Shown here piece by piece: positions 1 to 30,600 of a DNA stretch of 64,000 bases. A program made the position numbers and the translations under genes. The stretch is from a virus (taxonomy: Duplodnaviria > Caudoviricetes). Each line of letters begins with the position of its first letter. Positions within the stretch are counted from its first letter, which is position 1. The stretch lies in the IMG/VR virus record IMGVR_UViG_3300048854_000081, positions 128,001-192,000 of that record, one strand, 5' to 3'. Under the pieces are notes generated by a model. It did no database searches. It saw only the letters and a program-made list of their open reading frames with translations, and had not been told where the DNA came from.

Positions 1-1473
1 ATAGTGATAGTTACCTACAGCATAGGCTAAGCCCTTGTAGGAGCCTGTGTAATCAACGCGCGTCTTCCAGCGTAACTCATCACTACCCTTATCATCAGGG
101 AAGATTTCATCGCGTCTGTGGTGAGCTACGTTCTTGTATCCCCAGTTGAAGTGACAGTCACCAAACACTTCCGTATGCGATAAACGTAAGAAATCCAGAT
201 CATTATCTTCAAGAATATCAATACTCTTCTGGAACAGATTTGGAATGTATCTTACAAAACCATTCTTACATGGTTGACCCTTAAGAATCTTACCAGTTGG
301 ACTCTCACCCCAGTCAGCATCGTTCTCGCCGTCACATACCAAGAGCATATCATCTTCAAAGAAGATCATGTACTTGTGGTTACTTTTGTCAAAATGCTTT
401 GAACAGAATACACGACCATCGTTAATGCCAAGGTTATCACCTTCATGGATGACCTCAAAGCCATATTCCTTAAACAAATCGGAATATTCCTGAGCCAAGT
501 TAGGATCAGTGGAGTTATTGACTACATACTTCTTATTCTTTTCAAATTCTTCCGGGTAAGCTACACGGAAAGATTCTGCCCACATCTTAAACTGACGTGG
601 TAGATTGTAAGTGATTGCATAGAAGGCTAGTGGGAATTCTGGTTCTGCTTCAATCTTGTTCTGCTGAAGGTCTTCAAAGAACTTGTAAACAAGTCCATTA
701 CCTTCAATGTAACGAATATTGTACTTCTTAGGATCACGGTAGGTGGCTAGAGTGAATACCGATTCTTCCGTACCCATGTGACCAGCGTTCAATGTATCAT
801 TTAGAAGGTGGTAATACTGATCATTGAACGAATTGATCGCATCCTTGTTACCACCGAACACTCCACCACGACAAACGTACTTGGTGTCGGTACCAGCATA
901 TGAATTCATGGCTGATTTAGTGAAACCGTGGACTTCTACCTGACCATCATAAGGGAAAGCAAGGAACATCATCTTGTTTAGATGAGGAATGATTTGCTTT
1001 TCAAGTGCTGGGGTAAAGTACTGCTCAAGGTTTACTGTATTGGAAAGACCACCATCTACCCATAGAAAATACTTGGTATCAAAGTAATTGAATAGGGAAG
1101 CATCATTTAACATGAACTGCTTATTCATTACAAGTGGATTGTACAGTTCAAGCTTAGCTTGGGTACTATCGACTAACCAACCAGCCTGATTGTACCAGCT
1201 TGGATTAGTTCTAATTGATTGAATCTTTTCATTGAATGGAAAAGCTCTAAGATCGTCCAATGTCTTTAGGATGACGCGAGTATTTTCGCGACCTCTGATT
1301 TCCCAAACCACACTTTCGTATTGTGGTTCGATGTAGACCACCATAGGAAAGTCTAGTCTAAGCATTCTCTTGAAGCACTCTAGGTAATGATCGAAAGAGC
1401 GCTTCATACCGCCTTCCATTTCACCACGGCCTAGGTTAAACAATCCCGTTACTAAGGTTAAATTTCTTGTCAT
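1..1473 (-). CDS. Two-domain glycosyltransferase, 3'-truncated by the window edge: HtrL/WlaTC-like N-terminal domain plus GT-A (GT2-like) C-terminal domain
   Basis: Not in the ORF track; translated by hand from ATG 1473 (MTRNLTLVTGLFNLGR...YNPLVMNKQFML...YFLWVDGGL...VCRGGVFGG...MGTEESVFT). A second domain has FYAITYN...GDNLGINDGR...YMIFFEDDMLL. The frame stays open to position 1. Confidence 0.75.
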   Translation of the reverse strand, partial: MTRNLTLVTGLFNLGRGEMEGGMKRSFDHYLECFKRMLRLDFPMVVYIEPQYESVVWEIRGRENTRVILKTLDDLRAFPFNEKIQSIRTNPSWYNQAGWLVDSTQAKLELYNPLVMNKQFMLNDASLFNYFDTKYFLWVDGGLSNTVNLEQYFTPALEKQIIPHLNKMMFLAFPYDGQVEVHGFTKSAMNSYAGTDTKYVCRGGVFGGNKDAINSFNDQYYHLLNDTLNAGHMGTEESVFTLATYRDPKKYNIRYIEGNGLVYKFFEDLQQNKIEAEPEFPLAFYAITYNLPRQFKMWAESFRVAYPEEFEKNKKYVVNNSTDPNLAQEYSDLFKEYGFEVIHEGDNLGINDGRVFCSKHFDKSNHKYMIFFEDDMLLVCDGENDADWGESPTGKILKGQPCKNGFVRYIPNLFQKSIDILEDNDLDFLRLSHTEVFGDCHFNWGYKNVAHHRRDEIFPDDKGSDELRWKTRVDYTGSYKGLAYAVGNYHY

Positions 1474-1484
1474 CGTAAAATCCG

Positions 1485-2216
1485 TTAAATTATATTTGTT
1501 GATATTAGTTTGCCACCATGCAATGTTCTAAAGTTATCAGCAAATGGTGTTCTATTATTTACATTAATTATATTGATGTTGCTTTTTTGTATGGCTACTG
1601 CTAATTCAAATGCTTCAATAAAAGGATCGATGTCATTTTCAATAGCATAATCCGATATTGCCTTCCATTCTCTTAAAAAGTGATTGGTTATTTTACCGCG
1701 TGTTAAAACCATAATGGTCTCAACTGCTAGCCTAGCTTCGATAGTTGTGAAATCAATATCATGAGCTTTGGCTTTATCTGGAATGAAACGAGCTAGGCTT
1801 GTATTTTCGCAGACCTTTTCTCTGAAACGACACATTAATGTGTCATCGTGTCCATGAATGAATCGGGATATTCCTTTATCCCAACCAAATACGAATGTAT
1901 CTGCATCAATATAAATTAATGATTCACCAACCACCTGTGACGCCATATACATAGCAATAGATTTTAAATGATAATTAAACTTACCTTCAATGGTTGGTTT
2001 AAATAATTCATACTTATTGATATCTATAATCTTAAGTCTGCTACCAAAATAGTAGACATGCGGATCACAAATAGCTGGTTTGTCTGTAACTATATAAATG
2101 TCTGACGACGTGAACTTCATAACGCTCTGGACAAGCGTCAGACATTTATCGATGTACTCTTCACCTATTGCTAAGGTTACGAATACGATTTTTCTATCGA
2201 CATCATAACCACTCAC
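1485..2216 (-). CDS. GT-A fold nucleotide-sugar transferase-like protein
   Basis: IVFVTLAIGEEY, YIVTD, and a DxD motif in IYIDADTF; overlaps the upstream GT gene by 4 nt. Confidence 0.6.
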   Translation of the reverse strand: MSGYDVDRKIVFVTLAIGEEYIDKCLTLVQSVMKFTSSDIYIVTDKPAICDPHVYYFGSRLKIIDINKYELFKPTIEGKFNYHLKSIAMYMASQVVGESLIYIDADTFVFGWDKGISRFIHGHDDTLMCRFREKVCENTSLARFIPDKAKAHDIDFTTIEARLAVETIMVLTRGKITNHFLREWKAISDYAIENDIDPFIEAFELAVAIQKSNINIINVNNRTPFADNFRTLHGGKLISTNII

Positions 2217-3067
2217 AACAATCCTTCAAAAAATGCGCTGAATGACTTCATGGACGGCTCATAACATGCCCAATCTTCGTGATACCATGTATCAAAATCG
2301 AAAATGTTAAACAATTCAGGATACTGCTGGTAGATTAAGGTAAGAATCATTTCTTCTTGGAGAAGCGTGTTGTTCTCTAGAACATGATTGATGATTTCTT
2401 CCGAAGCCTCAAACATCTTAGAAATTTGTTCATTCGTACCACCGAACAGACCAGCAACCACACTACCCGGTAGGCGAGTGTCATTCATGTACAATTCGGG
2501 ATAATTATGCTGTCTATTGTTACAATAGAAGGTAAACAATCCAGTTTCGGTCAATTCGTTTAGCTTCTGAATAAGCTTACCATTGAAAGCTAAGATATTC
2601 TGAAACGATTTCTCGTAACCTTTGTCTTCCGGCATGAACGGATTGAACTTACTTGGGATGATGCCACCATGAGAAAGGCCCGCATCAATCCAGAATACCT
2701 TATCATTAACATTGGCATCAGATTCGGTCTTCAACCATTCCAGCTTCAACCACATGATTTCCACACAACGGTGTTCCCATACGTTATCATTAGCGTATAG
2801 TTCCTTGTTGATCTGTTTGATTTCATGGATTTTCTTATGATGCTTCATGGTTGGAAGCTCATAAATCTTCAAGGTCACATTCGTGATGGTATTCTGGTCA
2901 AGATATGTTTCAATCTCTTTCTTATCACGGGCAGATGTATAGCATAGAATAGGTGCGCCAAGATTTGCTAGGCATTTGAGAGAATAGAGATAGTGTCTAT
3001 CTCTATTCAATCTACCACCAAAATCTGTACCATGTAATTGATTATAAATTGCAGTTACAAATTTCAT
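2213..3067 (-). CDS. HtrL/WlaTC-family glycosyltransferase-like protein
   Basis: KFVTAIY, IMWLKLEWL, FWIDAGL, VVAGLFGG and EEMILT parallel the motifs of the 1-1473 N-terminal domain. The likely start is ATG 3067, directly after the upstream stop (track starts at 3106). Confidence 0.65.
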   Translation of the reverse strand: MKFVTAIYNQLHGTDFGGRLNRDRHYLYSLKCLANLGAPILCYTSARDKKEIETYLDQNTITNVTLKIYELPTMKHHKKIHEIKQINKELYANDNVWEHRCVEIMWLKLEWLKTESDANVNDKVFWIDAGLSHGGIIPSKFNPFMPEDKGYEKSFQNILAFNGKLIQKLNELTETGLFTFYCNNRQHNYPELYMNDTRLPGSVVAGLFGGTNEQISKMFEASEEIINHVLENNTLLQEEMILTLIYQQYPELFNIFDFDTWYHEDWACYEPSMKSFSAFFEGLL

Positions 3068-3068
3068 C

Positions 3069-5399
3069 TTAGGCATCCAACATCTTGTATCTGCTGCTGT
3101 TCTCAATCGATGAAATCAATAGATAATCATGATCCTTACCAATCTTTCCGGTATCCATGTACCACAATAGGATGCCTTCGTAATTGTTAGAGAACCATTC
3201 TAGGTTTTCTAGGTTACCACAGAAGAGTGCAGCCGTTGGGTAATGATTGATTTCAGCCTTGAAACGATCCTTGACGTAAGCCGCATCGAATATGCTTTCA
3301 ATATTCTTCTTAGAAGAAATGATGACATGCTCATCAGTCTTAGCGAACTGAGACAGAAGATCGACATCACGAGAGATATTGTAGGCATATTCACGTTCCT
3401 GTAACTCATCCAAGTTAACAAATAGGTGATATTTGCTGTTGTAAACATTGGCGTGAATCACTTCCTTACACCACAATAGCTTGATGTACTTAGCAAATTC
3501 AACCGTAGAATGCGTATGGAAGGTGAAACGTGCCGTTAGGCGAGAATCATAATAATGCTGTCTTGGTGTAATTGGGAAATACTTCAACGAGTCACTAGTT
3601 GGTAGAACAGCAGAGTATTTTTCCAAATTATACTGAGGAATCATAACAACAAGATTTCTACCATCACGGATCAAACCCTGAATCTTAGAAATATCACCAT
3701 CGATATCAGACTGATTATCCTTAAATGACAATACGTAGATCGATGTATCGTCAGATAGGGCAACCTTTTCCTGCTCTTCCTTCTGCTTTGTAAACTTATT
3801 GTTCGAAGCCTTGGAGATAATCTTACCTTCAAAGTAGACAGCATCAAGTTCGGTGTCTCTTAGAATCTTGAATGCATCTGAAAGACGGGTAAGAATAGGC
3901 TTACCGTCAACGTTAAACGACGTATTCAATAGAACACCATGACCGGTCAACTTCTCAGTCTCACCGATTAGATCATAAATTAACTGATTCTGGCTACGGG
4001 TAATGGTCTGTAGACGTGCAGTATTGTCTTCATGAGTAATAGCAGGAATCTTATCACGCCATTCTTCACGAACATTAGCCACGAACACCATGTGGCGGGA
4101 TTCAACGCCTTCATCGAATTCAAAATACTTAGGACAGTCTTCAAGACGAACCATAGGCGCGAATGGACGATACCACTCTCTATGCTTAACCTTATTGTTA
4201 AGAACATCCTTCATATCACCGACCGGGTTACAGATAATACTTCTGTTACCCAATGCACGGGAACCATGCTCAGAATTACCCTGAATCATACCGACAATGT
4301 TACCATCGGCGATAAATCGAGCCAAATCTTCTAACTGAACGTTTTCGTGAACAACTAGATCGTATTCCTGTACGTATGTACCGAATTGATTCTTATCTAG
4401 GATAGGAGCACCAGAATAGGTCAAATCAACCTGATTATCTGGCTTCAAATACCACATAAGACCACCGGAAGCAATACCACAGTCATTTACGTTAGGTGGA
4501 ACGAAAACCTTGTTATTTCTAAGCTTTAGAAGCTTGGAGTTCAACAATACGTTAAGCGCACAACCACCGGCCATTGAGACTGGCATATCTGGATACTTGT
4601 CTAGATATTTCTGTGCATACTTAAAGAACTGGTTTTCAAATGACTTCTGTGAAGTTGCTGCAATGTCCCAAGCAAGCTGACCTTCATAACGACTGGTTTC
4701 GAAGTTGAAATCATCACAACCAATACCCTTAAACAAAGCTGTTAGGGCATCATAGCGAGCTTCAGCACCACCAATGTAAGAATTACCAATGTAATTGAAC
4801 TTGGAATAGAATTCATCAAAATGAGGAACCCATTCGTCGCGAACAGTGCCGTATGAGCATAGACCCATGATTTTACCAGCATACACTAGATTACCAATAC
4901 TCAAAGCTTCCTTCTTGATATCCTTGATATAATCACAGATGATCATGTATGGGAAACCTAAGTCTTGGTTAAACTTATCGACTAGAGTAATACCAGTCTG
5001 TCTATTTGCTAGATACACATTGAAATAGCCACCATCGCCGCCACCATCAAAGGTGAAAACGAGAGATTCTTTATATGGGGACTGATAGAATGCGGTTGCT
5101 GCATGAGCGGTATGATGATCATAACCTAGAGCTTCCTTAGTATGGAATTTAGGCTTGATATTTTGTACGTAATCGGTTAGATATACGTCAACATCACTCC
5201 TGTCCGTGGTGGACAGGAGGTAGTCTGTAATTTCATCAAAGACAATCTGAGGATGCTTGCACGGCATGTAGGTGGTCAGACCTATGTTCTTAGAATTCAA
5301 CCACCTTTCGACTTCAATTACCCTATATTCACCCTTGTAATACATTGCTATTGCAGCATTGTGCGATCCATATGCCGATAGGATTAATTTGTCTTTCAT
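3069..5399 (-). CDS. O-carbamoyltransferase (NodU/CmcH/TobZ family) fused to a C-terminal HtrL-like domain
   Basis: HHTAHAATAFYQSP, DGGGD, GKIMGL, GGCALN, EHGSRALGNRSI, KHREWYRPFAP and LLNTSFN are diagnostic; there is an extra ~230-aa C-terminal domain. Confidence 0.9.
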   Translation of the reverse strand: MKDKLILSAYGSHNAAIAMYYKGEYRVIEVERWLNSKNIGLTTYMPCKHPQIVFDEITDYLLSTTDRSDVDVYLTDYVQNIKPKFHTKEALGYDHHTAHAATAFYQSPYKESLVFTFDGGGDGGYFNVYLANRQTGITLVDKFNQDLGFPYMIICDYIKDIKKEALSIGNLVYAGKIMGLCSYGTVRDEWVPHFDEFYSKFNYIGNSYIGGAEARYDALTALFKGIGCDDFNFETSRYEGQLAWDIAATSQKSFENQFFKYAQKYLDKYPDMPVSMAGGCALNVLLNSKLLKLRNNKVFVPPNVNDCGIASGGLMWYLKPDNQVDLTYSGAPILDKNQFGTYVQEYDLVVHENVQLEDLARFIADGNIVGMIQGNSEHGSRALGNRSIICNPVGDMKDVLNNKVKHREWYRPFAPMVRLEDCPKYFEFDEGVESRHMVFVANVREEWRDKIPAITHEDNTARLQTITRSQNQLIYDLIGETEKLTGHGVLLNTSFNVDGKPILTRLSDAFKILRDTELDAVYFEGKIISKASNNKFTKQKEEQEKVALSDDTSIYVLSFKDNQSDIDGDISKIQGLIRDGRNLVVMIPQYNLEKYSAVLPTSDSLKYFPITPRQHYYDSRLTARFTFHTHSTVEFAKYIKLLWCKEVIHANVYNSKYHLFVNLDELQEREYAYNISRDVDLLSQFAKTDEHVIISSKKNIESIFDAAYVKDRFKAEINHYPTAALFCGNLENLEWFSNNYEGILLWYMDTGKIGKDHDYLLISSIENSSRYKMLDA

Positions 5400-5424
5400 G
5401 TTTTCTCTTTATTATTTGCTAGTC

Positions 5425-5432
5425 TATTTATT
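5425..5432 (-). promoter_or_regulatory. Putative late (gp55-type) promoter AATAAATA upstream of the carbamoyltransferase
   Basis: The same NATAAATA octamer precedes many structural genes in this window; it lies 25 nt before the ATG. Confidence 0.55.
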
Positions 5433-5436
5433 AAAA

Positions 5437-6849
5437 TCAACTGTCTGCTAGACGGTCGATTCTAACCAACCAATCGTTCGAAGTGGTGTGCGGCCAAATC
5501 GTATAGGTCTTAGCGATGCGTGATGGATCACACATAAAGATGAAGCGATAGTCAACCCAATCACCCTTTAGATAAGCGGCAATTTCGTTAGCATCAAGGT
5601 CTTTTCTGAAGATTTCTTCGCCGTTCTCATCATGCGTACCAACGTACCAGAAATCGAAGTCAGTACCCGGATAAGTCTCTTCAACCTTAGTTTCAGGATT
5701 GACCCACTTAACGTCGTTCTTGTGAATGCATACGCGGATGTCATTCGAACGAGCAATGGTGGACTTCCATTCTTCTTCAGAATCGAAGGTCTGATATTCT
5801 AGGGTTGGTTCAACACGATCAAGAACCTTCTGCTGAACGCCACGGTACTTGAAGCTCATACCGGCATATTCTTCAAACTGCTTGACAGTACGGACAGTAC
5901 CGAAACCATACTTACCAAAATCGATCTGAGACTGGTCTTCACCGTCCATGCCGAATAGGATACGATTTCTCTTATGGCACTTGACGTTCTTTTCCCACCA
6001 ATCTTCAGTAATCTTACCCTTCTGCTTCTGCTGGGTGGTGTGGTCATCCCAAACCTTGACGCGACCCTTACGAGTATATTCGTGCCAAGCAACAGTTTTA
6101 TGTGGGTGATACAGATCGTAGCCGTGGGTGAAGGCACGAACACCGATAGAGATTTCTTCACCATGGAAGAAATATTCTGGATCATGCTGTACTTCTTCGG
6201 CAAAAGAGCCGTCAGCGAATGCAAAGTGAGCACTGTAGAAGCGCGAGAGCATTGGCTTGGTACGTTCCTTGTAATCATCAATCGTGGAAGGGCGGAAGAA
6301 CACTGCGCCTTCTGGAATGAAGCGATCAAAGTCCATTTTCCATGGTTCCTGAACACGACCGGCTGGATCGTTTTCTGGATCAAAAGAAGATATGTAAGCC
6401 GTCAATAGAGGCTTCGGACTTACATCCCTTACAGATTCTAACATTTCGATTAGTACCGTATCCCACCCCGGTATAAATCTATGATGCGAATCGAGTTGTA
6501 GGGTATATTTTTCCTTACCATAATGCTGCTGAATCTTGTTACGTGCCCAGCAAGCACCATGTGTCTTCAAATAATGAAGATCGATGAGTTCTACGGTTGC
6601 TCCATTCAACGTTAGCGTGTGGACAGTATCGCCCAACTTTTCGCCAGTAGAAACTACATCAAAAGACTTGTCGAGGAAATCCTCAACGGTTTCGTCTGCG
6701 GCATGCTGCCAACAGATAGTTACTCTTAGTAACTCTGGATGTTCTGCGTGTTCAATCATGTCAACTAGGGTTGGGATTAGTTGATGATCACGATAGCTCG
6801 CAATCTGTACGAATATCGTATTCTTGCTTTTGGTCTTAGTCTTAGCCAT
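5437..6849 (-). CDS. GT60-type glycosyltransferase (UDP-GlcNAc:polypeptide/hydroxyproline alpha-GlcNAc transferase-like)
   Basis: TIFVQIASYRD, GACWAR, YTLQLDSHHRF (DxH), FHGEE and RAFTHGYDLYHP match the Gnt1/OGNT (GT60) pattern. Confidence 0.8.
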   Translation of the reverse strand: MAKTKTKSKNTIFVQIASYRDHQLIPTLVDMIEHAEHPELLRVTICWQHAADETVEDFLDKSFDVVSTGEKLGDTVHTLTLNGATVELIDLHYLKTHGACWARNKIQQHYGKEKYTLQLDSHHRFIPGWDTVLIEMLESVRDVSPKPLLTAYISSFDPENDPAGRVQEPWKMDFDRFIPEGAVFFRPSTIDDYKERTKPMLSRFYSAHFAFADGSFAEEVQHDPEYFFHGEEISIGVRAFTHGYDLYHPHKTVAWHEYTRKGRVKVWDDHTTQQKQKGKITEDWWEKNVKCHKRNRILFGMDGEDQSQIDFGKYGFGTVRTVKQFEEYAGMSFKYRGVQQKVLDRVEPTLEYQTFDSEEEWKSTIARSNDIRVCIHKNDVKWVNPETKVEETYPGTDFDFWYVGTHDENGEEIFRKDLDANEIAAYLKGDWVDYRFIFMCDPSRIAKTYTIWPHTTSNDWLVRIDRLADS

Positions 6850-6876
6850 TTTAATCCTCTATCTTAAATGGTATTT

Positions 6877-6914
6877 CATAAAAGTGAATGTCGGGTGGGA
6901 TTCCCGACATTCAC
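6877..6914 (-). terminator. Putative intrinsic terminator
   Basis: Perfect 12-bp stem GTGAATGTCGGG/CCCGACATTCAC (6884-6914), followed on the minus strand by a short T run. Confidence 0.6.
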
Positions 6915-6941
6915 AGTTTGCGTTCTATTTAGGGCTGAAAA

Positions 6942-7382
6942 TTAACCCTTGTTTGCCTTAGGTGGGCGACCAGCCTTACGTGGAGCCTGAGCAGATTCGA
7001 CGACTGGTGCGTCAAACTGGGTCTGCGGGGCTTGTGGGTTAAGACGTGGAGCCTGAATAGCACCAGCGCGATGTAGGCTTGGTGCCATGATTTCGCCAGA
7101 GCGAGTTCTAACCTTAACAAACTGGTGGAAGTACTCTAGAGCGTTTACGCCGTTGGCGAGGGTCACCTGTGAGAATAAGTCCCAAGCTTCGTAACGAGCG
7201 GCATCACGCTTGGAAAGAATCTTCGCAGCGCGGTTACGGTCGATATCGTCAAGGTAATCAGTACGGATGAAATATACGTCACCGTTTTGCTTGTTGTGAC
7301 GCATAACGATGACTTCATAGGCGACGCCATTATTGAATAGGTCGATGGTAGAAACGTGTGGTAGCATAATGACTATCTCCAT
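6942..7382 (-). CDS. Hypothetical protein with a C-terminal AT-hook-like motif
   Basis: The ORF ends RKAGRPPKANKG; CATAAATA lies upstream (7402-7409). The true start may be 7367, which has GGAG upstream. Confidence 0.6.
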   Translation of the reverse strand: MEIVIMLPHVSTIDLFNNGVAYEVIVMRHNKQNGDVYFIRTDYLDDIDRNRAAKILSKRDAARYEAWDLFSQVTLANGVNALEYFHQFVKVRTRSGEIMAPSLHRAGAIQAPRLNPQAPQTQFDAPVVESAQAPRKAGRPPKANKG

Positions 7383-7432
7383 AAAATATTTTAGTCAAAA
7401 TTATTTATGGGTCAAAAAAATGTGTGTCGCGC

Positions 7433-8326: not shown

Positions 8327-8367
8327 TTGTGTATAAAAAATAAATACTCGTATAATATTATAAGAAC

Positions 8368-8751
8368 ATGAGCAGCCCATCAAAATTCCAACAATGGTCT
8401 AATGCCATCGCAGAAAGTGTTGATACGTGGAGAATCATACCCCGTATGATGCTTTTGGCTTACGGTGCATTGGTTATTAACCTGTACACATGGTACAAGT
8501 CAATTCCTACATTTATGCAGCAAAAATGTGATGCTGCCGTTCTTAAAATATTTATGGACGGTGGCCTTGGCGTGCAACAGGCTAAAGCTCTCGCTTGTAC
8601 CGTAGTTGACGTGGTAGGTGGTCCAACATCCAATCAATCCCTTTTCGTGACAACCATCATCGGTCTTTCGACCGGTATCTTTGGTTTATATACGGCCACG
8701 GGAAAGAAGTGGGATAATATTATCCCACCTCCGTCAAATCCTCAAACCTAA
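8368..8751 (+). CDS. Small two-TM membrane protein (holin-like candidate)
   Basis: Hydrophobic segments WRIIPRMMLLAYGALVINLYTWY and LFVTTIIGLSTGIFGLY; AATAAATA at 8339-8346. Confidence 0.45.
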   Translation: MSSPSKFQQWSNAIAESVDTWRIIPRMMLLAYGALVINLYTWYKSIPTFMQQKCDAAVLKIFMDGGLGVQQAKALACTVVDVVGGPTSNQSLFVTTIIGLSTGIFGLYTATGKKWDNIIPPPSNPQT

Positions 8752-20810: not shown

Positions 20811-22058
20811 TCATGGAGGTGGTGCAGATGGTGATGGTGTTGGGTCAGGTGTAGGAGCAATTGTTGGTGTAGGTGTTGCCTCTGGCGTTACTGTCAAAGT
20901 CACGGACGGAGTTGGGGTTACTTCTGGTGTCACCGTCATGGTCACTGATGGTGTAGGAGTTACTGTATCACTTAACGAAATTGTTGGAGTGATAGATGGG
21001 GTAACCGTCAATGACGCAGTGATGGAAGGTGTAACAGTAATCGTAGGTGAAACGCTGATAGTCAACGAAATCGTTGGAGTTATCGACGGAGTTATACTTG
21101 GGGTAATCGTCGCGGTAACTGATGGCGTAGGAGTCAAGGACGAACCCGGAGCCGGAGTTGAGGTTGGGGTTACCGAAGGTGTTGGTGTGACTGTCGCCGT
21201 TGCCGTAGGTGTCATGGTTGTGGTTACAGCCGGAGTATTGCTGGTCGATGGTGTTACTGTCAACGTTGGAGTAACCGATGGAGTCGATGTCAATGATGGA
21301 GTCAACGAAAGTGTTGGCGTTACGGATGGTGTATCCGATATGGTTGGTGTCAATGTTGGTGTAACTGGCGGTGTTTCCGATGGAGTTACAGAAATCGTAG
21401 GCGTAATCGATGGCGTCTCCGATGGAGTTGGAGTTACCGAAGCTGTCAATGATGGCGTTACCGATATGGTAGGAGTCACAGACGCAGTTGGTGATGCTGT
21501 CTGTGTTGGTGTAATGGTTGGACTGATTGCCGGAGTCGAACTTGGAGTGATAGATACCGACATCGTGATACCCGGAGTCGAGGTCGGTGTAACCTGTGGT
21601 GTCTTCGATGGGGTCAACGATGGCGATGCTGTAGGTGTAGGTGTGGCACTCAATATGATAGTTGAGGTTGGAGTTATCGTTGGTGTAGCCGATGGTGTAG
21701 GTGTAGGCGTGGAAGAAATAGGAACTGGGGTGATTGTTTCCAATACCGTACCAAAATACAAAACTTCTACGAAACCAGTGTAAGAATTGTTACCAAAATC
21801 TACAGTGAATACGTTATCATCCACCACTAAGGTGTTTGCCTCTACTTTAGTAAAGCCTGAGGTTGCATCACCAATATAAACTCTAATGGATAGGTCGCTT
21901 GAATTAAAGTAATGATTAACCGTCCACAACGATGATGCTGTGGTTTGATTGAATTGAAAAGAATTTTGGAAATCTTCAAAATTCTTTTCCGCATTGACTA
22001 CTCTACCAGTGATTTTATCTAATAGAACCTTTTTGTAATTAGAAAATAACTTAATCAT
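20811..22058 (-). CDS. Mucin-like virion protein: ~110-aa N-terminal domain plus a ~305-aa Thr/Pro/Ser tract
   Basis: Continuous TPTP/TPSVT/TPSIT repeats to the C-terminus. The likely start is 22058 (ATGA overlap with the upstream stop); the track starts at 22079. Confidence 0.75.
20814..21737 (-). repeat. Degenerate Thr/Pro/Ser codon repeat tract
   Basis: TP[S/T][V/I]T units repeated at protein level with variable codons. Confidence 0.9.
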
Positions 22059-24685
22059 TGGGTTAGTTTGCCCGCCCAAGTGTCAATAACAACATCAGTA
22101 TAAGCCGATGCACTTGGTAGTAATCCAAAAACATGACCATCGTTATAAATGTCGGAGGCACCTGAATAGTTCATCGTCTGAGTAGGGATATCAAATACAT
22201 AGATACCAAATCCAAAGGTATAAATTGTGATAGTATTTGCATTACTCTTTACAGTTCTCAGTCTAGCATCGGTAGCAGTCATACCTTGGAATTGATTCTG
22301 TGGTATCTGGTTTGTCAATGTTAAGGATGTGACATCTGTAACGTTATTAGTTGAATCTAGCGATCTAACGTTTAGTACACAGAATTCTGGAACGTCAGTT
22401 GTGACATCACTGCTAGCACCAAAAGTTAAGCTTGAAGGTGGTACAACTGGATTTATTACGAACAAGTAATTATCAGTTATGCTTATATAACCATAATCAT
22501 TAGCATTATAGATTACATTTTCAAGCTGTTGGGTTGCTCTATTATAGACGGCAACATAGGATTCATTGCTATCAATTACATTCTGAGACGTTAGGAATAG
22601 GTCTTGTCTTCTGCTATTGATGTTATTTGCAACGGATATGTAATCCTTCTCACCAAAGCTCTTGGATTCATAAATTTCACCATTGGTATCTTCCAAATTA
22701 TCTAAATGATATAAAGGAATTGTATCGGAAGATTGAATTACATCGAATGTATAAGTGACATCGACAGACGAATCTTCCACATTAATATTGGTTAGTCCAA
22801 TTTTGATTAATGTAAGTTTGTTCGTTTCATCTTCAACACCTAACATAAAGGCTGTACCATCACCCAAAACGTCCATACCATGCAAACCAACACAAGTTGT
22901 TGAGTTGGAGTTGGTAAAATCGTTCAATTGATTGACAGCAAGTTGGTTACCATTGGAAAATACAACAAGAGAATCGATATTTTGGCTGGTAGAGAATCTA
23001 TATGTGCCGTATTGTAGTCCAGTTGTAATATCTACCGCGTATGCAGATATCGATATGAAGCCTTCCGAATTATTTGGGATGGTGAATACTGGATGGGTTA
23101 TAGATGGTGCGAAACTACTATCATATTCGAAATCATTATCGGCATAGATACCAGACCAATAAAGATTACCGTCATTGCGATCTGTACCGACAAAGTTAGG
23201 TGGGTTTATGGATATGAATCCACCATTATCAAATCCACGAAGTTTACGTGTAAATTTATCTCCGACATCCTCACCATCACTGGAAACGCGCCACGATACA
23301 CTAAATTGACCAATATCATTACGAGTAGCACCATCAAATGAAGATAGTGCTACTTGTGCTGTTTTATCATTAGCATTCGTTAATGGGAATGCTGATTTAT
23401 AGAATAAAGAAATAGCATCTGGCGAATTCGATATTACTGTTGGTGAAGTGGTTACCGATGGTGTAATTGTAGGCGTTGGTGATGGTGTCACTGTTGTCGA
23501 ACTAGTAACCGTTGGGGTTGGAGTTAGAGTTGCCGAAAGTGTGACTGTCGGGGTTTGTGTATGCGTTGGTGTTGGAGTAGGGGAAATACCCAACGAAGAT
23601 GTTGGTGTAGGTGTTAACGATTGTGTGGCCGTTACCGATGGAGACAACGATGTTGTTGGGGTTGGTGAGGGAGTCAAGCTAACACTACGCGATGGCGTAA
23701 TGGTTGGGGTTGGTGAAGGTGTTGGACCCGGAATTCTGTTCTCAATCCATACAATTTCTTGTAGATCGATGAATACCGTGTCAGATGAGACAATGTGTCC
23801 CACTTTCTGTAGAGAATACTGTTGTGGAACGTCAACTGTGATCTGACCAGTATCACCAACGAACAATGGTGTGTTAGGTGCTTGGGTCCAATTCCAATTG
23901 TTATAATTGGTTAGAAAACCTTTTGTAATAAACTGTTTGACTTCATTGATACCAGCCGGTTCGACTGAAATGCCCACGCATGGGCGGGTGTAGTCGATAT
24001 AGGACGCAACACCAAGTTGCTTTGGTCCTTTCCATGTCAAGCAATGATAAGCTGGAATAGGTTCAATAGCTTTACCATCCATAAGAATGGAGTCGATTTT
24101 ATAAGCATTATGAATGTCTTGCTGGGTGTGAACCGGGTCTTCGGTCGTTAGAAAATAGTATCTACCACTACGATCTACCACGCGAAGGGCAATTCCATTT
24201 ACGTCAAATAGGATATAACCAAAAGATATCTGACCATTTAGTGCAACTTGCGATCCGATTGGCTGTGGCGTGAAAATACCACCGCTACCAATCTTACCAG
24301 CAAACACGCGAAGCTTTTCGTTCCAAGCTACGCCACTCCACACTTTCATTTTCTTATCAGCATAATCAAAGAAATGCTGACCTACCGAAGGATTGGCTGG
24401 TAATGAATTACCATAGGATGGTGCGTATGGGGTGGTGCCGAAGGTTCTAAGGCCAGTGGCAAGATCGATATCCCAATAAAGATAGGTATCTATCCCGGTA
24501 GGGAATGGACCCCATGCTCCTACAACTGCTTCGGCTTCCGTAAACAAATAATCATGAGTACCGTAAGCAAATGCAATATCTAGACGTTGAACATCTACGT
24601 TAATATTAACTTTACCACCCACAAGTTGTAGGTAGTTGTTATTCACTTGCGCTGCGATTATGCCTTGGCGAAAATTTATGATCAT
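22055..24685 (-). CDS. Virion fibre/decoration-like protein with a central Thr/Pro/Ser tract
   Basis: N-terminal structural region, ~100-aa TP tract (~23430-23730), beta-rich C-terminal region. Confidence 0.65.
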
Positions 24686-24743: not shown

Positions 24744-27560
24744 TCAGGTAAATGCAGATGTTGGTGGGATGAACCCGGCTGAAGTATATGGTGAAGACAT
24801 GCGCGTTACGCGAACCTCATCAATATAGCCAACCCAAGGATAGCCAGTATTGTAATAAACACCGATATTTAATTCGGTTGAGCTTCCGAAATTATCTCCA
24901 CTATCAATCGCATTAATGACAACCGTACCATTAATAGCTAACATGATAGCCGTACCGACTCGATATGCGGCCCAATGGAACCAACCAGTAGGAATAGTTG
25001 TAGCTGCTGATGCTTCTACTGATCCATTATGATAAAGTTGCCATGTTAATCCAGCATCATCCCAGCCACAACCAAGAGAGCTTGGTGAGCTATTTAAGAA
25101 CATCTGGAAGATGCCTCTAGGGGTCGCCGTTGCGTTTGCCCAACCTTCTATACAGAAATCACCATCAAGAGTACTACCAATGTTTGTAGTTCTCACATAA
25201 CCACCATTTACGAACAACGATGAACCACCAAATTTAGACTGAGCAGTCGATATTTGGGCTGGTGCAGTGCGTGTCCATGTGGTTGTCCCATGAGAATCCG
25301 TTATCGTCGTACTACCATTTGCTCCATCAAAATGTAGTAATGGACCGGTAGAAGCTATAGGCGAGTGAGTTACAGACGGAGTAGGAGTTACCGGAGGTGT
25401 TTTTGTGACTGATGACGTGACTGTAATGGTTGGCGTGACTGTCGGGGACGTTACTAATGTCTTAGTAATTGATGGTGTTAGTGTAATTGTTGGTGTAGGC
25501 GTTGGTGTTAGTGAAAAAGCATCCAATGTGAACGTACGCTTCTCGGCTGCGCCCCAAGCAGTTTGGTTGGTAATCGTTGCTGCAACTATCCAACTACTAT
25601 TATCATCAGAATATTCTATGGTGAAGTTTTTTGGCGCAAGAGCAGACTGATCCCCACCATTATATTGACCAGTCACACCAACAGTTTTAACCAATGTTGG
25701 CGTACCAAAATCCCAACCAATATAACCAGTAGTGCTACCAGCCGTCCATTTTGTTGAAACTAATCCATCAAACGCAAATGATCCATTATTGGCGCTATTT
25801 GCTTCACTTGATTCCAAATAGTTAGACCCTGCCAAGGCAGATTTTACTAGATTCACCGATGAGGTGCTATCATTATAGAAGGCCAGTTCAGCAACACCTA
25901 CATAGTTTGAATCTCCATTATTTAAGGAAATATTCATTCTCCAATATCTATGTGCAAACGCTGCCCATCCCGATGATGGGGTTGGCGTTGGTGTGGAAGA
26001 TATAGTTGGAGTTACAGAGATTGTAGGTGTAATCGTTCTAGAGACAGTGATACTTTTAGTGACAGATGGGGTTATCGTTATTGTCTTTGTTACAGATGGG
26101 GTTACCGTTGGGGTCAAAGTCTGTGTTGGTGTTGGAGTAGGCGTAATAAAGAAATCACGCTTAATACCAAAATTACGCATATAAGAGTTTGAACCACCAT
26201 TGTGATCGCCATTAAGACCTACAAAGTTACCGAACTGCTGTAATGGAATAGATGTGGCAACTACTGCTCCATCAACCAACATTTCTAATGTAATACCTGC
26301 GTCAGCCAGAGTTTTTACTCTAATAGTTACTGACTTCCAAACACCTGTTGGTAATGCATAGAGTGTTCCACCATTACCGATGGTTGGGTCATCTGTTTGA
26401 GCCCAGCTTGTCCAAGAGAAGTTCTGTAAGAAACCACAGTATAGTGTTGGTCCACCAGAATTTCCATTATTATAGTTTCTGGAATCGAAACGAGCCATGA
26501 TACCATGACCATTCGAATCACAACCAAGTAGAACGTCAGACACAGAATCCGTGTTTACCATGTACACGTCTACTGTGATTTGAGTTGAGATATCAAATGG
26601 CTGCGAACAGTTGATGTAAGCATAAGAATCCTCAGGAACACCAATTACCTGCAAGCTTGGATTTGTTGGATCAGGTGACATCACTGCGCCAACGTTCGTC
26701 CAACCACTTAGTGATGAACCATCAAAGGTACAATCATGCTGTGTTAGTGTTACTGATGGAGTTGGAGTCAATGTTTGCGTAACCGTTGCCGAAGGCGTGA
26801 ATGTACTCGTGTTTGTTGGTGTTGGTGTTATACCCGGAGTACCTGTTAAGGTAGGAGTTGCACTATTACCGGGAGTTCCGGATGGTGTAATAGAAACTGT
26901 GGCTGTTGGAGTAGCCGTATTTGTTGGGGTAAATGTTGGGGTAATAGATGGAGTAATAGAAACGGTAGCTGTTGGTGTTACCGTCGAGTCCATACTACCA
27001 GTTACCGAAACGGATACCGTATTCGATGGAGTAATAGATGGAGTTACCGAAATTGTGTTGGTGACGGACGGCGTTACAGTATTTGTTGCTGTCGCCGTTA
27101 GGGTTGGACTGGGAGACACCGATGGAGTATGTGAAACCGATAGCGTTACCGTCTGAGTTGGTGTCAGCGTTGGTGTAGGACTTGGAGTAATGGATGGATC
27201 AGGATAATTACAATTGTCCGTTCTATCTGTTGAATCCAAAAACACTAAATTTACATAGCCTGTAACCGGCTTTGAGAAGGTAATTTCTATGGCACAACCA
27301 TCAATAATTCTGACATCTGCGGATGCAAGTTCGTTATCTAGGTAAATATTTTCAGTAAACGCTTTCGATTTGGCGTTATGATAGATCGTCCATACGTTAG
27401 ATAGATCATATTGGATATGTTGGTACCCAAATACTGCATCATATACTTCATCCTTGGCGACCAAAACACCATCACTGAATCGTCTGAATAATTGTTTAAT
27501 ATTATTTTTATCGACCGAATGAGTCAGTGATGGTGTTGGAGTTGGGGTTAAGTCCGCCAT
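24744..27560 (-). CDS. Modular adhesin-like virion protein: anchor - TP - ConA-like - TP - discoidin/F5-8C - TP - LamG
   Basis: HRYWRMNI...AFDG...YIGWDFG...PKNFTIEYSDD (discoidin-like); LLHFDGANGST...SKFGGSSL...DFCIEGW...YIDEVRVT (LamG); three TP tracts. Confidence 0.75.
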   Translation of the reverse strand: MADLTPTPTPSLTHSVDKNNIKQLFRRFSDGVLVAKDEVYDAVFGYQHIQYDLSNVWTIYHNAKSKAFTENIYLDNELASADVRIIDGCAIEITFSKPVTGYVNLVFLDSTDRTDNCNYPDPSITPSPTPTLTPTQTVTLSVSHTPSVSPSPTLTATATNTVTPSVTNTISVTPSITPSNTVSVSVTGSMDSTVTPTATVSITPSITPTFTPTNTATPTATVSITPSGTPGNSATPTLTGTPGITPTPTNTSTFTPSATVTQTLTPTPSVTLTQHDCTFDGSSLSGWTNVGAVMSPDPTNPSLQVIGVPEDSYAYINCSQPFDISTQITVDVYMVNTDSVSDVLLGCDSNGHGIMARFDSRNYNNGNSGGPTLYCGFLQNFSWTSWAQTDDPTIGNGGTLYALPTGVWKSVTIRVKTLADAGITLEMLVDGAVVATSIPLQQFGNFVGLNGDHNGGSNSYMRNFGIKRDFFITPTPTPTQTLTPTVTPSVTKTITITPSVTKSITVSRTITPTISVTPTISSTPTPTPSSGWAAFAHRYWRMNISLNNGDSNYVGVAELAFYNDSTSSVNLVKSALAGSNYLESSEANSANNGSFAFDGLVSTKWTAGSTTGYIGWDFGTPTLVKTVGVTGQYNGGDQSALAPKNFTIEYSDDNSSWIVAATITNQTAWGAAEKRTFTLDAFSLTPTPTPTITLTPSITKTLVTSPTVTPTITVTSSVTKTPPVTPTPSVTHSPIASTGPLLHFDGANGSTTITDSHGTTTWTRTAPAQISTAQSKFGGSSLFVNGGYVRTTNIGSTLDGDFCIEGWANATATPRGIFQMFLNSSPSSLGCGWDDAGLTWQLYHNGSVEASAATTIPTGWFHWAAYRVGTAIMLAINGTVVINAIDSGDNFGSSTELNIGVYYNTGYPWVGYIDEVRVTRMSSPYTSAGFIPPTSAFT

Positions 27561-27617: not shown

Positions 27618-30600
27618 TCATGGACATTCACAACAGTTTGGACTTACGAAGGTACCGTCCGTACCGCCCGCACATACGCCCGCACAATCCTTTAGGTTGT
27701 GATGCAAGATGTACGAATTTTCTGTTTCACCAGCCCAAAAACACTTGTCGCCTACTGTAATGTGCTGTACTTCTTGATTACCAGCATCAGTTACAGAAAT
27801 TACTTCATCCCACATTGCTGCACCATTGATCATGGTAGCGATTTCTTCACCATAAACATCTGGTGCTAATAGGAAACCCTTATCCTTCGAAGGAATTGGA
27901 GCAGAGGTGGAACATACTAGCGAAGCACCCGACTTGGTTTCAATTCTTACACAAGGCTTAATTTCAGTCTTAGAGTAAGACACCACACCAGTACCCGGTT
28001 CAAGGGTTCTGTCATCAGCTAGAATCATAGTATCAGACACTTTAATATCACCAGCTAGTTTACCATCAGGTAGATATGAAGATACTGCTACACAACATTG
28101 ATAACCGATACTTGTACAATCTGGACATGCCGAAGCATTAGTTGGTGTAGGAGTCGGTGTTGGTTGTGGTGTATTCGATGGTGCTGGTGTGTTTGATGGT
28201 GCTGGTGTAGGAGTTACAGTCCTAGTTACCGTTGGTGTAATTGTTCTGGTAATGGTAACAGTAGGGGTAATCGTACTTGTTACCGTTGGGGTAATTGTAA
28301 GCGTTGGGGTAGTAGTCAACGTTGGTGTTGGGCTTGGTGTAGGTGTTGGTGATGGAGAAATTGGTACACCCGTGATTGCTTCGTAATGGGAGCGAATTTC
28401 ATCATCTTCCAAAGCTACGCCATACAATGAGAAGTTATCCAAACCACCGACATAGTTGTTTATGCTTGGTACGTTGTATGGAGAACCACCGATGCTTAGA
28501 CCGTAAATTTGCGAGAACAAGTTTGCACCCGAAACTGTTGTCGATGCTTCTTCCTGAGCATTGATGAAGATCGTCTGCTTATTACCCTGTCTTCTACACG
28601 TGATCATGTATGGTGTACCGTCAGCCGACACGGTTGTCTGTACTTCCGAGAATGCCTGATCGGTTGTAGCAATACGGTAAGCATACTTACCAGTATCTCT
28701 ATCAATATACAACATAAACTGTGGCTGCTGCGATCCAGCATTAAACGGAATGTAAACTAGAACTGGAATTGCAGCGTCCTGTTCCGTAACGTCAGCGTCC
28801 GAGAATATTTCAAACGTATAATCACCAGCCAAGTCTAGGAATGGACCATACTGGCCCAATACCATATTGTTCTGAGTAAAATCGTCAGATATTGTGATCG
28901 AACGTGCCGATTGCGAGAACAATCCAGCATCACCCAACGTTATGTTACCATTGAAGAAACCATCGTTACCATATAGTGAACTGTCGTGTGCAACCGTTGT
29001 GTTCAAGTCATCAAACTTGTAGTAAACAATTGGGTTACCATTTAGTACGGCAGTATCATACGCTGTAATTGGTACTGGCGAAGCTGTTGGTGTAATGGTT
29101 GGAACCGGGGTCATCGTAGGTGAGGCCGTGATGGTTGGGGTTACCGTAGGTGTACTAGTCAACGTTGGGGTAATCGTTGTGGTGCTGGTCAACGTTGGAG
29201 TCTGTGATGGTGTAGCAGTCACGCCCGGTGTGGCAGTGATTGTTGGGGTGATCGTTACCGTAGCAGTCATTGTCGGGGTAGCAGTCATCGTCGGAGTTAC
29301 CGATGGTGTCAACGATGGGCTTACCGATACAGTGATTGTTGGTGTAACTGATGGAGTTGGCGAAGGCGATGGTAGAGGTGGTAGGGTTGGAACCACAATG
29401 TTATCATCGATATCACAAGCACCACCCGGCTGAATGTTGTCAGACGTGATTGGAGCATTAACGTTGTTTACGTTAACATTCTGAGAAACGTCAAGCGCTA
29501 CCCATGAGGTCTTAAAGATATCGGAACTGTTGTACTTCAAGCTCATGGCATCATGTAGTGTAGCAAAGAAGATTGTGTTCACATTGGATGCGTCAAAGCC
29601 TTCGAAAATAGCGTACATAGCCGTTACAATATTATTCACATTGTCGAATGAGTATGTGGCTAGGAACGAGTTGATATCAATGTTAATGAAATCCTGAGAC
29701 GGATCATTCAAGATAGCCTGTATAGTCGATAGACCCAATTCTGGCGTGACGAAAATTTGCTCATCACCTAGACCATACTGAGTGTCAGTACCGTATAGGT
29801 TGTCGAATAGAATTCTGTCTAGCGAAGGAATCGTTACCGAAGTATCGATGATCTTGTCAACGACCGGATAACCGATCAATGAAGAGATTAGCTTTTCCCA
29901 CAAGTATTGATCGATCTTCTGTGTCTGCTTCTCACGGAATAGCTTCCATTCAACATGGACATTCTTAAGTGCAAGCGGTGTTCTGACAGCATTCTCAAAC
30001 GAATAATCGTAGATATCACCGTTGTATGGCATTCTGTCTCTCAACGTGAAGTCACGGATGAAGCGTAGAGCGTAACGCTCATCTTCATTAACGCCACCCT
30101 TCAATCCACGCACAACCAATTGGCTGTAACGGATTGGTAGATCGTATGGTAGAGAATCGAATACGTTACCGAAGATGACACCAAAGCCATCGTCCTGATA
30201 TCTTAGACCAGTCATAATCATGTAAGGATTTGGATTTGTAATCAAATCCTTCTGTGCCTGCAACAATGTGGACTGATAATTCGATGTGCTGGTCAATACC
30301 GTAGGCTTATTACTTACCCAAAAGTAGTAATAAGGAATTGGATCACCATTGTTTTCGTTAATCTTGTAGTTGGTCGAGTACGGTGTATCGTACTTGTAAA
30401 CAAGATTCGTCAAATCGTCCTGTGTTGGAATTGGCTTAGGAAGGATAACAGTGATGTAATCCTGAATGTTTGGCTTAACGGTTTGACCCGGTAGCATATC
30501 ACCATAAACATACTGACTGAAATCGTACTGATTTAGGTCCATGGAAAGATCGAACTTACCATTTCTGTAAACATTTACGACACCATCAAATGGGATCACC

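Follow-up and report, generated by a model that had tools for sequence, protein, structure and literature searches.

A jumbo-phage GT60 glycosyltransferase with an Ig-like C-terminal domain, a candidate for O-glycosylation of Pro/Thr-rich tracts in tail and baseplate proteins

What a phage might glycosylate with an enzyme of family GT60, whose characterised members are to our knowledge confined to protists, is the question raised by an open reading frame in the 64,000-nucleotide stretch analysed here (the window; positions 128,001 to 192,000 of IMGVR_UViG_3300048854_000081, an IMG/VR record of a jumbo phage, 350 kb long and with a completeness rating of 100%). The gene occupies positions 5437..6849 on the (-) strand and encodes a 470-aa protein (P0001), in which a glycosyltransferase domain is followed by a C-terminal tail. 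No earlier description of GT60/PF11397 in phages, of VgrG PT-repeat glycosylation, or of phage tail-fibre O-glycosylation was found in the literature, and the glycosylation of virions is, as far as we know, understood in only few phages, chiefly mycobacteriophages. A megablast search of window positions 2000-9000 against a phage collection gave zero matches.

The sequence-only reading had taken the protein for a GT60 enzyme encoded by a phage, and this is borne out by the Pfam family PF11397 ('GlcNAc'), which matches residues 11-333 with an E-value of 1.3e-77 (262.1 bits; cutoff 21) and of which profile positions 1-350 of 352 are covered, with a genome-level profile search giving the same assignment and phrog_24687 matching residues 10-464. 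The Pfam range, the invariant columns, and the fold matches place the GT-A catalytic domain at residues 11-333 (5851..6819, (-) strand). The full motif set recognised earlier is found here on conserved columns, with FVQIASYRD at residues 13-21, QLDSH at 118-122, GEE at 230-232, and THGYD at 241-245, every column of which is invariant or at least 90% conserved in an alignment of 47 sequences. Asp120 and His122 of the D-x-H motif and His256 are invariant in the same alignment, a pattern that points to a DxH-type metal site in which these residues would coordinate the metal. Searching the PDB for folds similar to the AF2 model of the whole protein (pLDDT 94.8, pTM 0.90) returned polypeptide GalNAc-transferases at E of about 1e-9 and 12-14% identity as all of the best 50 matches. 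The structural case against the GT60 reading, that the fold would prove to be that of a generic GT2 polysaccharide enzyme, fails because these 50 solved structures are all mucin-type ppGalNAc-transferases, with no GT2 polysaccharide synthase among them. PF00535 and other GT2-type or GT27 Pfam families gave no match at E<=0.01, the GT60 family profile found nothing among PDB sequences at E<=1, and no hydrophobic or membrane segment is present in the protein (maximum Kyte-Doolittle value 0.68).

The C-terminus had been described as some 100 residues of unrelated, beta-rich sequence, for which structure prediction and a fold search were proposed. Both were run, and the description holds. The tail beyond the Pfam domain totals 136 aa (residues 335-470; 5440..5847, (-) strand), which the structure model resolves into a short linker and a confidently predicted beta-sandwich of ~100 residues (about 365-470) with 7-8 strands and one short helix (pLDDT 92.8), and Pfam has no match to residues 335-470 even at E<=10. 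The tail resembles FN3 and Ig domains with VIA Z-scores of 5.5-6.9 (the best, 6.9, with an rmsd of 3.1 over 84 aligned residues), but matches stand out in VIA from a Z of about 8, so the likeness is one of common arrangement only; Foldseek with the tail alone returned nothing significant (best E 0.02). The analogy previously drawn with the lectin domain of ppGalNAc-transferases survives in part, in that the C-terminal position is analogous, whereas the domain itself is modelled as an Ig/FN3-like sandwich with no lectin similarity found; a beta-trefoil (ricin-B lectin) is absent from the VIA and Foldseek lists of the tail, an absence which is not in itself proof. Residues W361, D397, F400, R415, W452, H454, and W460 of the tail are conserved, and its sequence occurs nearly always together with PF11397. 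The sandwich may be an accessory domain specific to the GT60 family, which might help to hold an extended acceptor. That the tail may affect substrate choice or processivity is perhaps hinted at by a single contrast, in which a large neighbour bearing a Pro-Thr (PT) tract was found for 19 of 69 tail-bearing bacterial homologues and for none of the 11 that lack the tail (p=0.06).

The architecture of GT60 domain plus tail is common in both bacteria and phages, with more than 7,300 such proteins, at least 593 viral contigs, and the genomes of at least 150 bacterial species carrying it. The nearest sequence clusters of the phage enzyme belong to Uroviricota and Pseudomonadota, its named best homologues are all from phages or bacteria, and a tree of phage and bacterial sequences requires at least 11 switches between phage and bacterium. 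The 'eukaryote-type' label of the sequence-only reading was not upheld, and as a name for this enzyme it is misleading. The enzyme's orthologue in the cultured Xanthomonas phage XacN1, ORF334 (62.9% identity), lies in the same module and in synteny.

That module, new to this study, is conserved and is headed by the GT60 gene, with a NodU/TobZ-like O-carbamoyltransferase and two HtrL/YibB-like proteins encoded on the same (-) strand. The carbamoyltransferase (776 aa; 3069..5399) comprises Carbam_trans_N and Carbam_trans_C and matches phrog_1601; NodU is its best NCBIfam match, under that family's cutoff, and among solved structures it is closest to TobZ (E 3e-44) and to the novobiocin carbamoyltransferase. 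It ends in an extension of ~250 aa to which Pfam has no match at E<=10. An HtrL-like nature of this extension was considered and is not supported, with BLASTP against both HtrL-like proteins giving E>=0.3, a level at which remote similarity is still possible. HtrL/YibB-like protein A (297 aa; 2213..3106) matches PF09612 at E 5.3e-06 (26.7 bits, cutoff 24.1), and HtrL/YibB-like protein B, whose C-terminus lies past the window edge (1..1473), matches the same family at E 6.4e-18 (65.7 bits, cutoff 24.1) and is the orthologue of XacN1 ORF330 (546 aa). The TIGR02192 score of protein B is under the cutoff, neither HtrL-like protein reaches an NCBIfam equivalog cutoff, and a profile of protein B found nothing among PDB sequences. 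Between the two lies a conserved gene for a 243-aa protein (1485..2216, (-) strand), syntenic with XacN1 ORF331 and matchless in Pfam, PHROG, and NCBIfam. An HtrL partner adjoins GT60 at 74 of the 80 viral loci and at 24 of the 80 bacterial ones, with the two fused in P0141, L141, L145, L147, and L149.

The nature of the acceptor is suggested by a second association. Tracts coding for PTPTPT are present in 26 of 31 GT60-positive phage records and in 1 of 16 GT60-negative relatives (Fisher p=2.8e-7), a comparison in which the phage records cluster phylogenetically and the GT60-negative controls taken from IMG/VR are mostly fragments belonging to other clades; a strict PTPTPT match is absent from G006, a complete GT60-positive phage of 175 kb. 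At bacterial GT60 loci, a PT-tract protein of at least 300 aa is encoded within about 10 kb in 19 of 80 cases, with about 1.3% expected, and the remaining 61 have no PT neighbour in the flanks fetched. In Burkholderiaceae this neighbour is a VgrG spike whose end is a (PT)33-128 tract, Pfam-confirmed at three loci, while at other bacterial loci giant PT-tract proteins adjoin the gene, and in Paraherbaspirillum soli 4.7 Mb of sequence contain a single (PT)>=4 tract, at a distance of 2.6 kb from the GT60 gene. These neighbours fall in several separate lineages on the tree. As GT60 is repeatedly found together with PT-tract proteins, be they phage tail parts or type VI secretion spikes, it probably sugar-coats those tracts.

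In this phage, S/T/P tracts measured by sliding window occur in 16 proteins and amount to about 3,860 residues, about 1,765 of them Ser/Thr. Family scanning covered the five tract proteins inside the window, all of which are baseplate, tail, or virion proteins, with the nearest PT-tract gene lying 13-14 kb from the GT60 module. These candidate acceptors, all encoded on the (-) strand, are a 422-aa protein matching phrog_15511 (20811..22079; tract at residues 109-422), an 876-aa protein (22055..24685; tract at residues 313-427), a 938-aa baseplate-wedge-like protein with five tracts between F5/8-C and Laminin_G_3 modules (24744..27560), a 3,678-aa virion structural protein (27618..38654; residues 3085-3201 and 3422-3517), and an 809-aa virion protein with a lysozyme domain (44911..47340; residues 201-253). 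XacN1 ORF325, the counterpart of the 3,678-aa protein, likewise contains PTPTPT matches.

The best reading of these sequence data, which we hold with modest confidence, is that the GT60 enzyme would transfer O-HexNAc onto PT tracts in the cytoplasm. As a soluble, cytoplasmic GT-A enzyme with a DxH metal site, it would most likely start mucin-type O-glycosylation. By family analogy the HexNAc would be GlcNAc taken from UDP-GlcNAc, as the GT60 enzymes that have been characterised transfer alpha-GlcNAc to polypeptides (PMC6939170). The acceptors would be the Thr/Ser hydroxyls of Pro/Thr-rich linker tracts in virion proteins of the phage itself, those of the tail and baseplate included, modified before or during virion assembly. 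We infer an order of steps in which the adjacent HtrL/YibB-like proteins would then probably lengthen the glycan and the NodU/TobZ-like enzyme would probably O-carbamoylate a sugar hydroxyl, the latter step being supported by its solved relatives, which act on sugar hydroxyls. In favour of this reading, virions of XacN1, which carries the orthologue, contain at least two PAS-positive glycoproteins (PMC5852040). Against it count the position of the module beside replication genes and 13-14 kb from a tract gene, the 61 bacterial loci that lack a PT neighbour, the absence of a strict match in G006, and the LOS/LPS loci from which HtrL/YibB proteins are otherwise known. A broader proposal, to which we give somewhat less than even credence, is that bacteria and phages share an undescribed cytoplasmic mucin-type system, in which GT60 with its Ig-like tail would initiate the glycan, an HtrL-type protein would extend it, and O-carbamoylation would optionally cap it, and which would be dedicated to the Pro/Thr linkers of contractile injection machines. 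Its targets would be phage baseplate and tail proteins and the VgrG spikes of type VI secretion, the tracts of which would be sugar-coated stalks, not bare linkers.

Other acceptors have to be weighed against PT tracts. The module could remodel a glycan of the host envelope (LPS/LOS core, O-antigen, or exopolysaccharide), for example as a superinfection block, with a sugar or lipid-linked acceptor for GT60. HtrL/YibB proteins, to whose family the PF09612 matches belong, are otherwise known from LOS/LPS loci (PMC4172580), NodU-type enzymes carbamoylate oligosaccharides, and a comparative review of jumbo phages takes phage glycosyltransferase clusters as modifiers of surface polysaccharides (PMC7824862). 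We nevertheless consider this unlikely, with the GT60 protein lacking a membrane segment, the module genes matching only carbamoyltransferase and HtrL_YibB families in Pfam and PHROG and nothing transporter-like, and the structural neighbours of GT60 being polypeptide transferases rather than polysaccharide synthases; an envelope target also leaves unexplained the repeated linkage to PT tracts, including those of VgrG, which is assembled in the cytoplasm. Glycosylation of host or target-cell proteins in place of PT tracts, by a phage takeover factor or a bacterial effector associated with type VI secretion, is more doubtful again. Whilst the PHROG category ('moron, auxiliary metabolic gene and host takeover') and the location of the Burkholderiaceae gene near vgrG would suit such a role, GT60 and vgrG are convergent in L091, where a cargo gene is usually co-directional, the family adjoins PT-tract proteins unrelated to type VI secretion in other phyla, and its close pairing and fusion with HtrL-like partners suits the building of a glycan better than a toxin.

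The remaining alternatives concern proline and DNA. Hydroxyproline is the specific acceptor of the Gnt1-type GT60 enzymes (PMC6939170), and this phage encodes a P4H-type 2OG-Fe(II) oxygenase (PF13640, 45.7 bits), so the acceptor could be hydroxyproline instead of Thr/Ser, with the tract prolines hydroxylated first in the manner of the Skp1 pathway, in which Gnt1 acts after a prolyl hydroxylase. This is very unlikely, as the oxygenase does not track with GT60: this phage and its closest relative are alone in passing the cutoff, and the gene is absent from XacN1, Xoo-sp13, and RAS14, and from nine more complete or near-complete GT60-positive records (with one sub-cutoff match). Least credible of all is glycosylation of the phage DNA as a hypermodified base protecting against restriction, which the position of the module suits, since it adjoins the replication genes RNase H and DNA polymerase (PolB) in all XacN1-like phages. 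GT-A enzymes that glycosylate DNA do exist in phages, but those known resemble the base-J glycosyltransferase and TarP (R..DDD..EDY/F) and not the DxH, ppGalNAc-transferase-like type (bioRxiv 10.1101/2023.12.21.572611). The ThyA-like gene of this phage, moreover, scores 214.8 bits with the canonical thymidylate synthase equivalog, whose cutoff is 108, no C5-methyltransferase was found, XacN1 DNA is cut by BssHII, NaeI, and SpeI (PMC5852040), and chromosomal bacterial GT60 copies beside VgrG are hard to fit with a DNA substrate. TET/JBP enzymes were not found either, but this absence is weak because the positive controls of the search also gave no match.

Cytoplasmic glycosylation of PT tracts, the preferred reading, has partial precedents. 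The protist GT60s (Dictyostelium/Toxoplasma Gnt1 and Trypanosoma cruzi OGNT; PMC6939170) share family PF11397 with the phage enzyme, Gnt1 being likewise soluble and cytoplasmic and the T. cruzi mucin enzyme having a Pro/Thr-rich polypeptide acceptor of the kind proposed for the phage enzyme. The latter differs in its subfamily, which is one of prokaryotes and phages and has the additional Ig-like tail, and in its HtrL-like and carbamoyltransferase partner genes, and, in contrast to the Gnt1 pathway, GT60-positive phage records have no consistently linked prolyl hydroxylase. The animal ppGalNAc-transferases (GT27), the best structural matches of the catalytic domain, share with it a DxH-type metal motif, a C-terminal accessory beta domain, and, as predicted for the phage enzyme, Thr/Pro-rich acceptors. 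However, identity to GT27 is only 12-14%, with no Pfam GT2/GT27 match and no membrane anchor, and where GT27 has a ricin-B beta-trefoil the phage tail is modelled as the ~100-aa Ig/FN3-like sandwich. The neighbouring gene belongs to the same two-domain sugar O-carbamoyltransferase family as NodU/NolO, TobZ, and NovN, from which it differs in its ~250-aa extension and in its substrate, which would be a protein-linked glycan.

The glycosyltransferase families of mycobacteriophage virion glycosylation are not known to include GT60. In those phages, glycosyltransferases of the phage modify virion proteins while these are still in the cytoplasm of the host (Freeman et al. 2023, as cited in PMC12619734). 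The glycans described in PMC12619734 are located on the C-termini of capsid and tail-tube subunits, whereas the candidate acceptors here are PT tracts that are long and internal to proteins of the tail and baseplate. The authors of the XacN1 study (Yoshikawa et al. 2018) proposed that phage glycosyltransferases make the virion glycoproteins they detected (PMC5852040); their paper covers neither the glycosyltransferase family nor its tail domain, and it does not deal with the module, the PT tracts, or the identity of the glycosylated proteins.

If the preferred reading is true, phage and bacterial proteins that now carry the annotation 'hypothetical with PT linker' would be glycoproteins in their thousands, the VgrG spikes of type VI secretion among them, with a bearing on the mechanics of tails and spikes, resistance to proteases, recognition of receptors, and immune recognition of therapeutic phages. 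The HtrL/YibB family, itself uncharacterised, would gain a testable function, and mucin-like glycopeptides could be made by a simple route in the bacterial cytoplasm. XacN1 is a cultured phage with public virion proteomics data (ProteomeXchange PXD008065; PMC5852040), in which the PT-tract hypothesis is directly testable.

The timing of expression of the module is not readable from the sequence, with the T4-type late promoter TATAAATA found once in the window against 4.5 matches expected and none near the GT60 gene. A hairpin resembling an intrinsic terminator, with a 12-bp stem and a T-run, was read from the sequence at 6878..6914 ((-) strand), in the interval that separates the GT60 start codon from the gene upstream, and suggests that the module begins its own transcription unit.

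The ORF at window positions 5437–6849 on the minus strand is clean and encodes a protein of 470 residues, with residues 11–333 matching the GT60 family Pfam PF11397 “GlcNAc” (E = 1.3e-77, 262 bits, cutoff 21). This match, together with a tail beyond residue 334, bears out the sequence-only reading of a GT60-type enzyme with an extra C-terminal region in a phage, and the four motifs listed in that reading (residues 13–21, 118–122, 230–232, and 241–245) fall in columns of a 47-sequence alignment that are invariant or conserved to 90% or more. The source virus record spans 350,036 bp and is rated 100% complete in IMG/VR, with the jumbo phages XacN1, Xoo-sp13, CM1, and RAS14 as cultured relatives (59–63% identity between GT60 proteins, ~50% between PolB proteins). 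An AlphaFold2 model from the 47-sequence alignment has a pLDDT of 94.8 and a pTM of 0.90, and the 50 best Foldseek matches in the PDB are exclusively polypeptide GalNAc-transferases of family GT27 (E ~1e-9, 12–14% identity), including human T1, T2, T4, T7, T10, and T12, Drosophila PGANT9, and Toxoplasma T3. Generic GT2 polysaccharide enzymes, named beforehand as the structural neighbours that would speak against the proposal, are absent from these 50, and a sequence search of the PDB with the family profile detects no solved structure. The gene is a new member of the known GT60 family, and its product is predicted to be well folded. With a maximum Kyte-Doolittle value of 0.68 and no hydrophobic segment, the protein is predicted to be soluble and cytoplasmic, as is the protist enzyme Gnt1, and unlike the Golgi enzymes.

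The tail (residues 335–470) matches no family in a Pfam scan, even at E ≤ 10, however phrog_24687 spans residues 10–464, placing the tail within a phage protein family. Modelled alone (pLDDT 92.8), it consists of a short linker and a β-sandwich of 7–8 strands, in agreement with the ~100 residues of β-rich sequence originally proposed. Exhaustive structural comparison returns FN3/Ig-like domains (Z 5.5–6.9 over ~80 aligned residues), a resemblance rated as a common arrangement only, and Foldseek with the tail alone returns nothing significant. The lectin domain of the polypeptide GalNAc-transferases occupies the same position, with nothing to suggest that the two are identical. In an exhaustive tail-only search the last ~70 residues recur almost solely alongside PF11397, which makes the tail a companion domain of a prokaryotic GT60 subfamily; such an Ig-like companion domain has not been described previously. 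The first half of the tail (window 5653–5823, residues 343–399) shows weak repeated similarity to the WxxW/CysD repeats in one animal gel-forming mucin, with 13 stretches of this 4,323-residue protein (P0128) aligning at a summed E of 5.5e-14 and pairwise identities of 37–44% over 36–57 residues. Pfam PF13330 does not match the tail in the scan to E ≤ 10, and the resemblance may be coincidence.

Relatives are abundant in phages and bacteria, and the earlier description of the enzyme as eukaryote-type does not hold. Among 5.8 billion proteins there are >7,300 matches, with the best 120 all aligning near full length, and relatives occur in at least 593 IMG/VR contigs and the genomes of at least 150 bacterial species, including Burkholderiaceae, Gemmatimonadota, Verrucomicrobiota, Acidobacteriota, Myxococcota, Bacteroidota, and Planctomycetota. 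The closest Atlas clusters are viral and Pseudomonadota. A FastTree phylogeny of 161 viral and bacterial sequences requires 11 or more changes between viral and bacterial carriers, of which 6 are imposed by strongly supported branches, and nests the present protein in a Burkholderiales-dominated set. It belongs to a large prokaryote/phage GT60 subfamily. Longer homologues also exist (P0002, 797 aa; P0016, 768 aa; P0105, 701 aa), the first of which, at 1,172 bits, suggests a duplicated or extended architecture.

The GT60 gene heads a conserved glycan-building module, being the first gene of a co-directional set in all XacN1-like phages. It is followed by a 776-residue NodU/TobZ-type O-carbamoyltransferase (3069–5399, minus strand), an HtrL/YibB-like protein, a ~245-residue protein without family, and a longer HtrL/YibB-like protein, HtrL_B (1–1473, minus strand). 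A strong terminator-like hairpin (12-bp stem and T-run) directly upstream of the GT60 gene at 6878–6914 parts the module from the upstream gene. An HtrL_B-like gene accompanies GT60 in 74 of 80 viral loci, compared with 13 for the carbamoyltransferase; many of the 80 belong to lineages without PolB/RNase H synteny. GT60 and HtrL thus form a conserved two-enzyme core, with carbamoylation optional. HtrL_B also adjoins GT60 in 24 of 80 bacterial loci, with several fused. Single-ORF fusions of GT60, tail, and HtrL_YibB (P0141; L141:9908–12904; L147:7267–11802; L149:9854–13549) come from Myxococcota and Vicinamibacterales MAGs. The nearest solved relatives of the carbamoyltransferase, TobZ (E = 3e-44) and the novobiocin enzyme, both carbamoylate sugar hydroxyls; the TobZ and NovN alignments stop at residue ~530, and the ~250-residue C-terminal extension (window 3069–3830, residues ~525–776) has no detectable Pfam family. 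A 316-residue protein at 7433–8383, without match in Pfam and PHROG scans, carries repeated AT-hook-like motifs (KPGRPPKK/GKPGRP) near its N-terminus; in the 11 XacN1-like viral loci it keeps its synteny with the module.

Ser/Thr/Pro-rich tracts occur in 16 proteins of the phage, totalling ~3,860 tract residues (~1,765 Ser/Thr), the longest single tract being 626 residues. Five of these proteins lie in the window's tail block: a baseplate-wedge-like protein that carries F5/8-C and Laminin_G modules, a lysozyme-domain virion protein, two proteins of unknown family, and a 3,678-residue virion structural protein (27618–38654; XacN1 counterpart ORF325, 3,313 residues) with a Laminin_G_3 module and two tracts near its C-terminus. 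In-frame PTPTPT-coding patterns number 11–31 per genome in four GT60-positive genomes (reversed control pattern, 0–1), compared with 0, 1, 0, 0, and 0 in five related jumbo phages without PF11397. The pattern is present in 20 of 25 further GT60-positive IMG/VR records (10 of the 11 at least 90% complete), and of 13 PolB-related IMG/VR records only the two that have GT60 carry it. Overall, 26/31 GT60-positive and 1/16 GT60-negative records contain the pattern (Fisher p = 2.8e-7). These records cluster by phylogeny, and the IMG/VR records that lack GT60 are fragments from other clades.

An independent association of this kind is observed on bacterial chromosomes, where in 19 of 80 loci the flanks encode a protein of at least 300 residues bearing a Pro-Thr tract of at least 20 residues, against ~1.3% expected from genome-wide tract density. 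These neighbours occur in several separate lineages of the 161-sequence tree and, as low-GC Saprospiraceae and Planctomycetaceae loci also show them, are not a GC artefact. They accompany 19/69 tail-bearing and 0/11 tail-less homologues (p = 0.06 only). Nine Burkholderiaceae-type loci have as this neighbour a protein of ~800–950 residues with a C-terminal (PT)33–128; the three that were scanned proved to be VgrG spikes, carrying Phage_GPD, gp5 OB, and gp5 C-terminal domains. The tails of these T6SS VgrG proteins (L091:13909–16467; L096:12273–15134; L100:15108–17603) are pure (PT)n, and a literature search found no description of such tails or of their glycosylation. In Paraherbaspirillum soli the VgrG tail is the sole (PT)≥4 tract in 4.7 Mb, 2.6 kb from the GT60 gene, and in an Acidobacteriota MAG all 16 matches lie 8–18 kb from it. 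A Pro-Thr-tract protein of 1,200–1,450 residues with an Rv2525c-like glycoside-hydrolase domain lies directly upstream in one Sphingomonas genome and in two MAGs of Pseudomonadota.

Family membership, fold, module conservation, and Pro-Thr association are observed or computed, and the function we consider most likely, with moderate confidence, is that GT60 initiates O-glycosylation of virion proteins, and in bacteria of VgrG spikes, at their Pro/Thr tracts. The complete system would represent a novel variation on known virion and mucin-type glycosylation. In XacN1, at least two virion protein bands are reported to be periodic acid-Schiff-positive, with the authors suggesting that the phage glycosyltransferases ORF328 and ORF334 make these glycoproteins (PMC5852040); ORF334 is the orthologue of the GT60 gene. 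Remodelling of host LPS/EPS by the module is improbable: whilst HtrL/YibB is associated with LOS loci (PMC4172580) and such a role has been proposed generally for jumbo-phage glycosyltransferase clusters (PMC7824862), it leaves the Pro-Thr linkage and structural neighbours unexplained. Modification of host proteins, or a T6SS-effector role, is possible, although neither the HtrL pairing nor the contexts outside T6SS agree well with it.

For O-glycosylation of Pro/Thr tracts we infer the acceptor residue, as we do the donor, glycan structure, and tail function. Hydroxyproline is a conceivable acceptor, with the phage encoding a 263-residue P4H-type 2OG-Fe(II) oxygenase (PF13640, 45.7 bits; L253:1057–1848, genome 286398–287189, outside the window), however this oxygenase does not track with GT60 and is common to the closest relative only, among the phages tested. 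Glycosylation of phage DNA is weakly supported, solely by the adjoining replication genes. Against it, the product of the ThyA-like gene scores above the cutoff of the canonical thymidylate synthase equivalog, no C5-methyltransferase was detected, nor any TET/JBP match in a search whose positive controls also gave none, and the known DNA-modifying phage GT-A enzymes are of a different structural class (bioRxiv 10.1101/2023.12.21.572611). Furthermore, XacN1 DNA is digested with BssHII, NaeI, and SpeI (PMC5852040), which argues against heavy base hypermodification.
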